A stretch of 64,000 nt of DNA. Source: Escherichia coli O157:H7. GTDB lineage: Bacteria > Pseudomonadota > Gammaproteobacteria > Enterobacterales > Enterobacteriaceae. Location: NCBI RefSeq assembly GCF_013167455.1, contig NZ_CP038328.1. One strand, 5' to 3'. Under the pieces are notes generated by a model. It was given only the letters and a program-made list of their open reading frames with translations. It searched no databases and was not told the DNA's origin. Positions 3,380 through 5,233 of the stretch are shown one piece after another; position 1 is the stretch's first letter; every line of letters starts with the position of its first letter. Made by a program: the position numbers and the translations under genes.

Positions 3380-5233
3380 ATGACATTTAAACATTATGAT
3401 GTTGTCAGGGCGGCGTCGCCGTCAGACCTTGCGGAAAAGCTGACACACAAACTGAAAGAGGGCTGGCAGCCGTTTGGTAGTCCGGTGGCCATAACCCCTT
3501 ATACCCTGATGCAGGTGATTACAGCAGAAGGTGATGTGGTGGTCAGTGGTGCAACTGAGCCGGATTGGTACTACGTCATCGTACTGGCCGGGCAGTCCAA
3601 TGCCATGGCTTACGGTGAAGGGCTTCCGCTGCCGGATTCATACGATGCTCCGGATCCGCGCATTAAACAGCTGGCGCGCCGCAGTACAGTTACGCCGGGT
3701 GGGGCTGCCTGCAGATATAACGATATTATTCCGGCCGACCACTGCCTGCATGATGTGCAGGATATGAGTACGCTGAATCATCCGAAGGCAGACCTGAGCA
3801 AAGGGCAGTACGGCTGTGTCGGCCAGGGCTTACATATTGCCAAAAAACTGCTTCCGTATATCCCGAATAACGCGGGGATCCTGCTGGTACCATGCTGTCG
3901 TGGTGGTTCGGCATTCACCCAGGGCGCGGAGGGGACATTCAGTGCGGACGCGGGGGCCAGCCAGGATTCGGCGCGCTGGGGTGTGGGTAAACCGTTATAT
4001 CAGGACCTGATTGCGCGCACTAAAGCTGCATTACAGAAGAACCCGAAAAATGTGTTGCTGGCGGTGTGCTGGATGCAGGGAGAGTTTGACATGAGCGCCG
4101 CCACCCACGCACAGCAACCTGCGCTGTTTACAGCCATGCTGGCACAGTTTCGTGCTGACCTCTCCGTGTTTAACGCGCAGTGCCATGGTGGCAGTGCTGC
4201 AGATGTGCCGTGGATTTGTGGTGACACGACGTATTACTGGAAAAATACCTACGGCACCCAGTACAACACCATTTACGGGGCGTACAAAAACAGGGAGAGT
4301 GAGGGCGTTTATTTTGTGCCCTTCATGACAGACGGTAACGGCGTCAATACCGCCACTAACGCGCCGGCAGAAGATCCGGATATTCCGGCATCAGGATATT
4401 ACGGTGCGGCATCGAGAACGAATGGAAACCAGGTATCATCAAACCGCCCGACACATTTCAGTTCATGGGCGCGCAGGAGCATTATTCCGGATCGTATGGC
4501 AACCGCTATTCTGAACGCAGCCGGGCGCACCTCAGCCTTCATCAGTGGTAAGGCACCGGAAATCAAACCCTCGCCCGGCGGCAACACGCCATCGGGTCCG
4601 TCTGCAGATACGTCCGTTCGCACAATCTCCCTGCTGCCGGCAGCCGGAGAGGCTGCTGCGCAGGGCTGGAGCATTAAGGATGGCGGAATTCAGTTGTCAG
4701 ATGGTGTATTTAAGATCACCAGGCAGAGCAATAAAACCTGGTCCCTGACGCATCCGGTGGATGACGCAATTACCCTGCTGACACAGGGCGGCAGACTGAC
4801 CTGTAAGTTCCGCCTGTCAGGCGCACTGACCAACAATCAGTTCGGGCTGGGGATTTATCTGTATACGGATGCTCCCGTTCCTGATGGTGTGGCGATGACG
4901 GGTACCGGTAATCCGTTCCTGATGTCGTACTTCACTCAGACCACTGACGGCAGAGTGAATCTGATGCATCACAGGAAAGCCGGAAACACGAAGCTGGGGG
5001 AGTTCGGCGATTACGGTAACGACTGGCAGACGCTGGAGCTGGTGTTCACCGCCGGCAGTGCCACGGTTACTCCGAAACTGAATGGAGTGGCTGGCCCGGC
5101 ATTCCAGGTTATAAAAGACAGTATGACACTGGGACTGAATGCGCTGACGCTGACGGATGTTACAAAAAATGCAGCGTATGGCGTTGAGATAGAAAGTCTG
5201 GTGCTGGAGATAAATGCACCGGCATCATCATAA
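3380..5233 (+). CDS. nanS-p: Prophage-encoded sialate O-acetylesterase (NanS-p-like; SGNH/SASA hydrolase with N-terminal DUF1737-like region and long C-terminal extension)
   Basis: 617-aa ORF with RBS GGGAGG upstream; SGNH active-site block [18 protein letters not shown] near residue 65-80; matches the NanS-p family found downstream of Q or stx in EHEC lambdoid prophages. Confidence 0.75.

Follow-up and report, generated by a model that had tools for sequence, protein, structure and literature searches.

The gene nanS-p of the Sakai prophage Sp17 very probably encodes a phage-borne sialate O-acetylesterase of the NanS-p family that is built from three modules and encoded in a late operon. An N-terminal DUF1737 domain, which is a capsid-hexon anchor in phage phi24B, is followed by an esterase domain. 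With a Ser73/His359 dyad resembling that of chromosomal NanS, this domain would strip O-acetyl groups off Neu5,9Ac2 and similar sialic acids. It is followed by a flexible Ser/Pro/Gly linker and a predicted ConA-like jelly-roll domain (DUF6645). Domain homology, the intact catalytic residues, the C-terminal fold and the genomic position were computed here; that NanS-p alleles are active esterases and that DUF1737 binds the capsid is taken from the literature. We infer that the Sp17 allele is itself active and expressed.

There is nothing unusual about this intact gene, whose phage-borne NanS-p product was already described for E. coli O157:H7. Its nucleotide sequence is 100% identical to positions 3484385-3486238 of NC_002695.2 (E. 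coli O157:H7 Sakai), and copies that are 100% identical are also found in many other O157:H7 genomes. One copy is present in the window, by which we mean the whole 64-kb stretch of O157:H7 DNA that was analysed. Published work already covers the gene and its family as well as the three-domain architecture and the C-terminal fold. The database name of the protein, 'DUF6645/DUF1737 domain-containing protein', conceals a known enzyme. The 617-aa protein matched phrog_143 over its full length, the PHROGs matches were to families of unknown function only, no NCBIfam family was found for it, and literature searches under 'DUF6645' and 'ECs3498' returned nothing. PADLOC gave no match for NanS-p either, so that a link to a defence system is absent.

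Table 1. Features of the nanS-p region of prophage Sp17 (positions are those of the window).
Feature	Position	Strand	Basis or remark
Late antiterminator Q gene (ECs_3501)	1100..1723	+	phrog_127, anti-termination protein Q-like; Sakai annotation
Two terminator-like hairpins with T-runs, between Q and nanS-p	3138-3159, 3257-3278	+	Consensus scan
Shine-Dalgarno sequence GGGAGG	3370..3375	+	4 nt before the nanS-p ATG; direct sequence reading; strong RBS
nanS-p gene (ECs_3498, Sakai prophage Sp17)	3380..5233	+	ATG start, 617 aa + stop; ORF list
N-terminal DUF1737 domain	3386..3520	+	Residues 3-47; Pfam PF08410, E=3.4e-14
SGNH/SASA sialate O-acetylesterase domain	3554..4516	+	Residues 59-379; phmmer vs PDB 3PT5 (NanS/YjhS), E=4.8e-121
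Putative catalytic nucleophile Ser73 codon, block I (GQSN 71-74)	3596..3598	+	Motif position; aligned with the GQSN Ser of 3PT5
Putative catalytic His359 codon, block V (RPTH-F)	4454..4456	+	Motif position; aligned with the His of 3PT5
Interdomain linker, Ser/Pro/Gly-rich	4517..4639	+	Residues 380-420; between the two PDB matches
C-terminal domain, lectin-like jelly-roll predicted (DUF6645)	4640..5230	+	Residues 421-617
Holin gene (ECs_3497), directly downstream of nanS-p	5383..5598	+	Holin PHROGs; Sakai annotation

The order Q, nanS-p, S is the usual one for this gene and is the same in Min27 and YYZ-2008. Because nanS-p occupies a late operon position between the antiterminator Q and the holin, one would expect its product to appear when the prophage is induced and to leave the cell through lysis. 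The two hairpins that separate Q from nanS-p are presumably terminators that are antiterminated by Q. Sp17 is a defective lambda-like, non-Stx prophage of Sakai in which a membrane-protein gene takes the place of stx. Its endolysin gene is truncated by ISEc8 and IS629, a partial IS30 lies upstream and morphogenesis genes are missing; within the 64-kb window we found no homologue of either type of capsid protein considered below. Since the prophage is defective and without capsid genes, induction and release of Sp17, as well as any capsid role, are uncertain. The same lesions would fit a reading in which nanS-p is an inert remnant of a decaying prophage that yields no functional product. We consider this highly improbable, as the ORF is uninterrupted over its 617 codons and shared at 100% identity by many O157:H7 genomes; on these grounds a decayed pseudogene was rejected. 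The gene also has 98.4-98.8% nucleotide identity to alleles of functional Stx1 phages, its catalytic residues are intact, its RBS is strong and the Q gene is intact.

The esterase domain and its catalytic residues

The match to 3PT5, together with a Pfam SASA match (PF03629) on residues 66-262 (E=8e-12), bears out the identification of a NanS-p-type sialate O-acetylesterase that an earlier note had made from the letters of the DNA alone. The note had also placed the GQSNA block close to the N-terminus, and it is found there at residues 71-75. Disruption of the catalytic motif, a prospect raised in the same note, was not what we observed. As read from the alignment with 3PT5, the motif of Sp17 NanS-p is undisrupted, with both Ser73 and His359 intact, and His359 is invariant in alignment A3. 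The catalytic role of the corresponding Ser and His of NanS was established through mutagenesis (PMC10017367), and the block V variant RPTH was previously noted in Stx2 phage 86 (PMC10462455). The statement that the last ~300 residues hold no catalytic motif was mistaken, because the alignment with 3PT5 runs from residue 59 to residue 379; residues 300-379 belong to the esterase and carry His359.

Published work on related alleles is consistent with an active enzyme. All NanS-p alleles of EDL933 and O104:H4 that were tested are active esterases, and lysogens gain a growth benefit on Neu5,9Ac2 (PMC8065619). Z3342, a closely related Stx1-phage protein, is abundant in EDL933 supernatants (PMC12962677), an extracellular abundance reached despite the absence of a signal peptide.

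Linker and C-terminal domain

Domain boundaries were taken from the two PDB sequence alignments (3PT5 and 6YP6). The earlier note was right that the protein continues well beyond the part shared with NanS, but the ~300 residues given for this extension, and the boundary at residue 300 proposed for a domain search, were wrong. The extension starts at about residue 380 and comprises ~237 aa, made up of a 40-aa linker and a ~195-aa domain. An enrichment in Gly, Thr and Asn had been pointed out as well. It is present but slight, residues 300-617 containing 11.0% G, 10.1% T and 6.3% N versus 9.9%, 8.3% and 4.9% in the whole protein. The only strongly biased part of this region is the linker (17.5% S, 15% P and 12.5% G).

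The search of the C-terminal region did turn up a domain that had previously been described in NanS-p, the outcome that the note had named as refuting its view. PDB entry 6YP6 ('NanS-p', the phi24B protein's C-terminal domain) matched residues 421-613 with E=1.7e-29 and ~35% identity (phmmer), and Pfam DUF6645 (PF20350) matched residues 467-577 (E=9.4e-18). No Pfam lectin or CBM family was found for the Sp17 protein at the sequence level; one relative gave a weak match to Laminin_G_3 (ConA-like; E=5.5e-3). A 1328-aa Cna-B-like repeat protein (P0095; E=2e-5, seven stretches) was rejected as a relative, the match being spurious and driven by repeats. An AlphaFold model of the whole protein, computed from seven aligned sequences, was of poor quality (mean pLDDT of 56.8) and was set aside. 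The AlphaFold model of the C-terminal domain had a pLDDT of 94 and a pTM of 0.89, and the best Foldseek match for this model was again 6YP6 (TM 0.89/0.85, rmsd 2.2 A). The next match was the sialic-acid-binding CBM40 of the V. cholerae sialidase (2W68; TM 0.60-0.62, E=3e-8), a resemblance at the level of the fold only, with 15-16% identity, and it was followed by VIP36 and ERGIC-53, both L-type lectins, and by legume lectins. A fold search of BFVD returned generic ConA-like/LamG domains only (TM 0.5-0.6).

By alignment and by predicted fold, the C-terminal part is the lectin-like domain of 6YP6 in a diverged form. That domain, from phi24B NanS-p, was crystallised and described as a lectin-like jelly-roll in a 2020 paper (Franke et al. 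2020, cited in PMC10462455 and PMC8065619). The view that this region poses an open question is largely outdated for that reason. The suggestion that it might be a lectin-like or carbohydrate-binding module held up as far as the predicted fold is concerned, and we infer that the module is probably carbohydrate-binding. Three of the four aromatics proposed to form the sugar site of phi24B remain aromatic in the Sp17 allele (Y510, Y515 and Y540 correspond to F488, Y493 and F518), and Y493 is nearly invariant over the family alignment. The fourth, F611, falls opposite a one-residue gap beside L584; the family alignment shows it as an insertion of one residue that is confined to the crystallised type. 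No glycan ligand of any NanS-p C-terminal domain had been reported experimentally as of PMC8065619, and we found nothing newer in the literature.

DUF6645-type domains are found both with and without an esterase, as expected of an autonomous binding module; in two relatives (P0059 and P0078) DUF1737 is fused straight to DUF6645 and the esterase is missing. This distribution speaks against an enzyme-linked role, such as that of a pro-domain or stabilising domain which would be removed by autoproteolysis, would regulate or chaperone the esterase and would not bind sugar. Such a role finds support in a preprint on phi24B in which both domains are described as contributing to enzymatic activity (bioRxiv 10.64898/2026.04.10.717836). 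We nevertheless judge it improbable for the Sp17 protein. Neither of its linkers has the SSP motifs at which phi24B gp84 is proposed to process itself, the predicted fold is closest in structure to lectins and CBMs, and an aromatic at the proposed sugar site is nearly invariant. Esterases that otherwise resemble each other carry at least two types of the C-terminal domain, which have diverged deeply (~35% identity), and different NanS-p alleles within one EHEC genome may target different glycans.

The DUF1737 domain and capsid type

The N-terminal DUF1737 domain had been overlooked in the first reading of the sequence. In phage phi24B, the NanS-p protein gp84 is among the major proteins of the virion, and it binds the capsid through its DUF1737 domain, which forms hexamers on the capsid hexons (bioRxiv 10.64898/2026.04.10.717836). 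NanS-p might on that precedent be chiefly a virion component, a capsid decoration anchored by DUF1737 that displays the esterase and lectin-like domains. The displayed domains would bind or modify mucus or bacterial surface glycans to the benefit of the phage, and the protein would not be a metabolic 'moron' that serves the lysogen. This reading overlaps our main explanation and differs from it in the beneficiary and the site of action.

The distribution of DUF1737 variants speaks for a virion role. The variant tracks the type of capsid protein, and not the esterase or lectin type, in 8/8 phages, four of which carry esterase and C-terminal domains of the other type; the eight are related phages that were counted without phylogenetic correction. 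Stx2a_JNE122137 was excluded from the count because the stretch fetched for it held no capsid-protein homologue of either type. Gene linkage alone is insufficient to account for the covariation, since DUF1737 is encoded at the end of the gene that is farthest from the capsid gene. The joining of DUF1737 to DUF6645 in the esterase-free P0059 and P0078, and the signal peptide-independent abundance of Z3342 outside the cell, point in the same direction. Transfer of the phi24B result to the Sp17 allele meets several obstacles, however. Between the two phage types, the capsid proteins have no detectable sequence similarity, so that what holds for phi24B may not hold for the other type, and although Tyr41 is present in the DUF1737 domain of Sp17, its loop is three residues shorter than that of the anchoring Tyr42 of phi24B. 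Moreover, Sp17 is defective, the window is without a capsid gene, and the published growth benefit on Neu5,9Ac2 accrues to the lysogen. On balance, we regard a chiefly virion-borne NanS-p as possible, with the odds somewhat against it.

The covariation nevertheless suggests that the capsid decoration seen in phi24B extends to long-tailed Stx phages. More specifically, and as a tentative proposal that we consider rather unlikely to hold, NanS-p would decorate the capsids of long-tailed (Pankowvirus/Marienburgvirus-type) Stx phages in addition to those of phi24B-like podoviruses, with DUF1737 matched to each capsid type and swapped without regard to the esterase and lectin modules. The protein from Sp17 would then be an 'orphan' decoration protein. 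If other prophages in the same O157:H7 cell supplied capsids of the matching type, it could load onto these in trans and display the esterase and a diverged lectin-like domain of possibly different glycan specificity. If decoration in long-tailed Stx phages were true, it would change the view of the 'metabolic' role of NanS-p.

Comparison with known systems

Our preferred reading, a three-module phage-borne esterase, agrees with the NanS-p proteins of 933W (z1466), Min27 and phi24B (vb_24B_21/gp84). These have the same DUF1737, SASA esterase and lectin-like jelly-roll arrangement and the same SGNH blocks, lie in the same place, with Q (and stx) on one side and the holin on the other, and have a C-terminal fold that superposes on our model at TM 0.89. 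Sp17 is a non-Stx defective prophage, whereas 933W, Min27 and phi24B are Stx2 phages, and the Sp17 allele is shorter (617 versus 645 aa), its first linker being 14 aa shorter than in the Min27/933W type. Identity to the Min27/933W allele is 62% in DUF1737, 71% in the esterase and 35% in the C-terminal domain, which has no detectable nucleotide similarity. SISSP and SSPSG occur in Min27 and are absent from the Sp17 linkers, block V reads RPTH in place of the RASH/RSSH of the 933W/Min27/phi24B type and the RSSH of K-12 NanS, and the phi24B aromatic F611 has no counterpart. Physical presence of NanS-p in the virion has been shown for phi24B only (bioRxiv 10.64898/2026.04.10.717836).

The closest alleles are those of long-tailed Stx1 phages (H-19B, YYZ-2008 gp42 and Stx1a phages of O157:H7), which account for the 98.4-98.8% nucleotide identity across the whole of nanS-p. 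YYZ-2008 gp42 differs from the Sp17 protein by ~14 amino acids, and the domain variants are the same throughout. These phages have stx1 upstream and their morphogenesis module is complete; Sp17 is without either. Chromosomal E. coli NanS (YjhS, 3PT5) is homologous to the whole esterase domain (E=5e-121), and the GQSN Ser and block V His are common to both. As inferred from its chain, it consists of the esterase domain alone (326 aa), without DUF1737, linker or lectin-like domain.

More distant resemblances concern the outer modules. The ConA-like beta-sandwich predicted for the C-terminal domain is also that of CBM40 (2W68), VIP36 and ERGIC-53, the best neighbours outside NanS-p (TM 0.55-0.62, E~1e-7 to 3e-8), and CBM40 of the V. 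cholerae sialidase is, like the NanS-p domain, attached to a sialic-acid enzyme. Sequence identity to CBM40 and the L-type lectins is 11-16%, and no Pfam or other sequence-level membership is shared. Hoc-like capsid decoration proteins, which belong to the 'bacteriophage adherence to mucus' idea, use a small capsid anchor to display glycan-interacting domains, as proposed for phi24B gp84; their folds are unrelated to those of NanS-p, which carries an enzyme besides.

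The nanS-p gene and its prophage

The single nanS-p copy in the window shares 100% identity with ECs_3498 of E. coli O157:H7 Sakai and with its counterparts in many further O157:H7 genomes. Among 5426 complete E. coli genomes, 2182 contain related sequences, in a median of 2 and at most 14 places per genome. The closest phage alleles (98.4-98.8% nucleotide identity) are those of the Stx1 phages H-19B and YYZ-2008 and of many Stx1a phages. The Sakai annotation assigns the region to 'prophage Sp17; lambda-like phage', which is inserted beside ssrA. The local order is a NinI-like phosphatase gene, Q, a low-GC membrane-protein gene, nanS-p, holin, a YdfR-like gene, a truncated endolysin gene and type III effector genes; Sp17 lacks morphogenesis genes. 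The endolysin gene is broken off after ~76 codons by a partial ISEc8 element, which is in turn interrupted by IS629. Thus the lysis cassette is dead, though holin and nanS-p are intact. The slot of the membrane-protein gene, ECs_3500, is exactly where Stx phages have stx, and this gene looks like an alternative 'moron' cargo in the same late-operon position. The two hairpins just upstream of nanS-p may be terminators subject to antitermination by Q.

Features of the nanS-p region (window nucleotides) and of its product (residues)
Feature	Position	Strand	Remarks
Antiterminator Q	1100-1723		upstream of nanS-p
ECs_3500 (phrog_1521)	1976-2719 (region 1961-2719)		between Q and nanS-p; multi-pass membrane protein, GC 35-39%
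Terminator-like GC-rich hairpins with T-runs	3138-3159, 3257-3278	+	just 5' of nanS-p
Converging terminator-like site	3196-3177	minus	near the nanS-p 5' hairpins
Shine-Dalgarno GGGAGG	4 bases 5' of nanS-p ATG	+	sequence
nanS-p ORF	3380..5233	+	ATG start, 617 aa
Holin	5383-5598		downstream of nanS-p
Endolysin gene	5998-6228		truncated
Partial ISEc8	~6212-7486		IS66 family
IS629	~7487-8796		
Distal Sp17	9333-13883		nleG6-3 pseudogene, espW, nleG8-2, espM2 (type III effectors) and dinI, then ssrA
ssrA tmRNA gene	13521-13883	minus	marks Sp17 integration site
DUF1737	residues 3-47		Pfam E=3e-14
SASA esterase	residues 66-262		Pfam E=8e-12
DUF6645	residues 467-577		Pfam E=9e-18

Domain layout and the C-terminal domain

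The earlier note had correctly given the ORF, its length and an N-proximal SGNH block, whose GQSNA motif lies at residues 71-75. A PDB sequence search with the protein returned two separate matches: residues 59-379 matched E. coli NanS/YjhS (3PT5; E=4.8e-121), and residues 421-613 matched 6YP6 (E=1.7e-29), a chain of 218 residues labelled 'NanS-p' that is the crystallised C-terminal domain of phage phi24B NanS-p (gp84). Ser73 (GQSN) and His359 (RPTH-F) align with the SGNH-block Ser and His of NanS, in which mutagenesis confirmed the catalytic Ser and His and no acidic third residue is known (review, PMC10017367). Because the NanS alignment includes the catalytic His359, the catalytic domain reaches approximately residue 379. 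The C-terminal extension had been placed too early, from residue 300, and the stretch thought to be devoid of a catalytic motif contains His359. The proposed Gly/Thr/Asn richness held only as a mild enrichment of Gly and Thr in a domain of ~195 residues, whereas the 40-residue linker preceding it is biased toward Ser, Pro and Gly (17.5, 15 and 12.5%). The function of this region had been posed as a question; the domain search that the note proposed matched DUF6645 in Pfam and, through 6YP6, a domain of NanS-p that had been described and characterised before, which is the outcome that the note had named as refuting. The observation is genuine, but the gene is an ordinary, already known member of a known family, and the C-terminal question is answered by the published crystal structure of a homologue. 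The exact protein is publicly named 'DUF6645 domain-containing protein', 'DUF1737 domain-containing protein' or 'hypothetical protein', and no NCBIfam model matched it. These generic names stand although the NanS-p enzyme family has been characterised experimentally.

An AlphaFold model of the C-terminal domain, built from an alignment of 16 family members, was all-beta (mean pLDDT 94, pTM 0.89). When the PDB was searched with Foldseek, the model matched 6YP6 best (TM 0.89), then V. cholerae sialidase in its sialic-acid-binding domain (2W68; TM 0.60-0.62, E=3e-8), followed by L-type lectins (VIP36, ERGIC-53 and legume lectins) and the jelly-roll subdomain of botulinum toxin receptor-binding regions. 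The putative sugar-site aromatics Y510, Y515 and Y540 of phi24B correspond to F488, Y493 and F518. In the alignment, Y493 is nearly invariant across the family and F611 of phi24B is a one-residue insertion confined to the crystallised type. Up to 2021, binding by the NanS-p C-terminal domain had no experimental support (PMC8065619), and we found nothing newer in the literature.

With the C-terminal domain as query, a full HMMER search across 1.84 billion representative proteins returned just 56 clusters, many of them fragments. DUF6645 was present in all 12 full-length relatives examined, DUF1737 in 5-6 and the esterase in only 3. Relatives with esterase-free or extra-domain layouts are the proteins P0059, P0078, P0054, P0063, P0071 and P0088; DUF1737 is joined straight to DUF6645 in P0059, and two DUF1737-like repeats precede DUF6645 in P0078. 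Such modularity fits an autonomous binding module better than part of an enzyme. Several relatives carry an extra conserved C-terminal domain of ~100 aa (motif DDVSS.VYFP...RGG.V.LPD), often preceded by a YNGRRGDG motif.

DUF1737 and capsid type

According to a 2026 preprint (bioRxiv 10.64898/2026.04.10.717836), phi24B gp84 is an abundant virion protein that is processed after release; hexamers of its DUF1737 sit on the central hexons of the T=9 capsid, with Tyr42 as the anchor. The Sp17 allele type is found in long-tailed phages with a 645-aa capsid protein for which no similarity to that of phi24B/Min27 was detected. We compared DUF1737 and capsid types in a small sample of eight related phages with a capsid gene in the fetched stretch. 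Six have the YYZ-type capsid protein (YYZ-2008, Stx1a_EH2115, phi330, BP-4795, Stx2c_JNE082796 and Stx2c_EH1904), and all six carry the DUF1737 type of the Sp17 allele (90-98% identity). In four of these, the esterase and C-terminal domains belong to the Min27 type (95-100%). The other two, Min27 and PPwrbA_EH2201, have the podovirus capsid protein and the Min27 DUF1737 type. Thus the DUF1737 variant tracks the major-capsid-protein type in 8/8 phages (loci L002-L013), irrespective of the esterase and C-terminal variants. Simple linkage would predict the reverse, since DUF1737 is encoded at the nanS-p end most distant from the capsid gene. These data, from eight related phages with kinship ignored, support capsid-specific anchoring by DUF1737 in long-tailed Stx phages too. 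The covariation suggests domain-wise recombination within nanS-p combined with a capsid-matched anchor in these phages. Sp17 encodes no capsid; speculatively, its NanS-p could have such a role only in trans, on capsids made by other resident prophages.

Proposed function and comparison with other alleles

In the reading with most support, Q-dependent late transcription on induction would pass the two putative terminator hairpins and express nanS-p and the lysis genes. NanS-p, which has no signal peptide, would be released via lysis. Outside the cell the Ser73/His359 esterase would de-O-acetylate sialic acids, either on mucin glycans or as free Neu5,9Ac2, an activity carried over from literature on other alleles. 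The C-terminal lectin-like domain, predicted from its modelled fold and conserved aromatic residues to bind sugar, would hold the enzyme to polymeric substrate on its flexible linker. Z3342 (CP-933V NanS-p), the closest allele type, is among the ten most abundant EDL933 supernatant proteins, where it is listed as an unknown-function protein with 'non-classical secretion' (PMC12962677). Its abundance is consistent with release by phage lysis; lysis or virion membership would explain it.

The comparison of alleles, also proposed earlier, was carried out against Min27, whose amino acid sequence is listed as the same as that of 933W (Table 2, PMC10462455). Amino acid identity was 62% for DUF1737, 71% for the esterase, 39% for the second linker and 35% for the C-terminal domain. 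Nucleotide similarity was 78% over the 5' region and DUF1737 and 70% over the esterase, and none was found over the linker and C-terminal domain; therefore nanS-p is a mosaic. The nanS-p of vB_EcoS_phi330 (L007:1225-3160) is annotated as two ORFs of 126 and 503 aa, apparently because of a frameshift or a sequencing error within the esterase domain.

The first linker has 14 residues fewer than that of Min27, and neither linker contains the SSP motifs at which autoprocessing has been proposed for phi24B gp84. Among Stx2a phages the RPTH block variant was seen only in phage 86 (PMC10462455). Approximately 40 phage records carry the C-terminal type of the Sp17 allele (at least 80% identity) and ~308 the crystallised type (~34% identical), counts that agree with the previously reported diversity of the NanS-p 'CTR' (PMC10462455).
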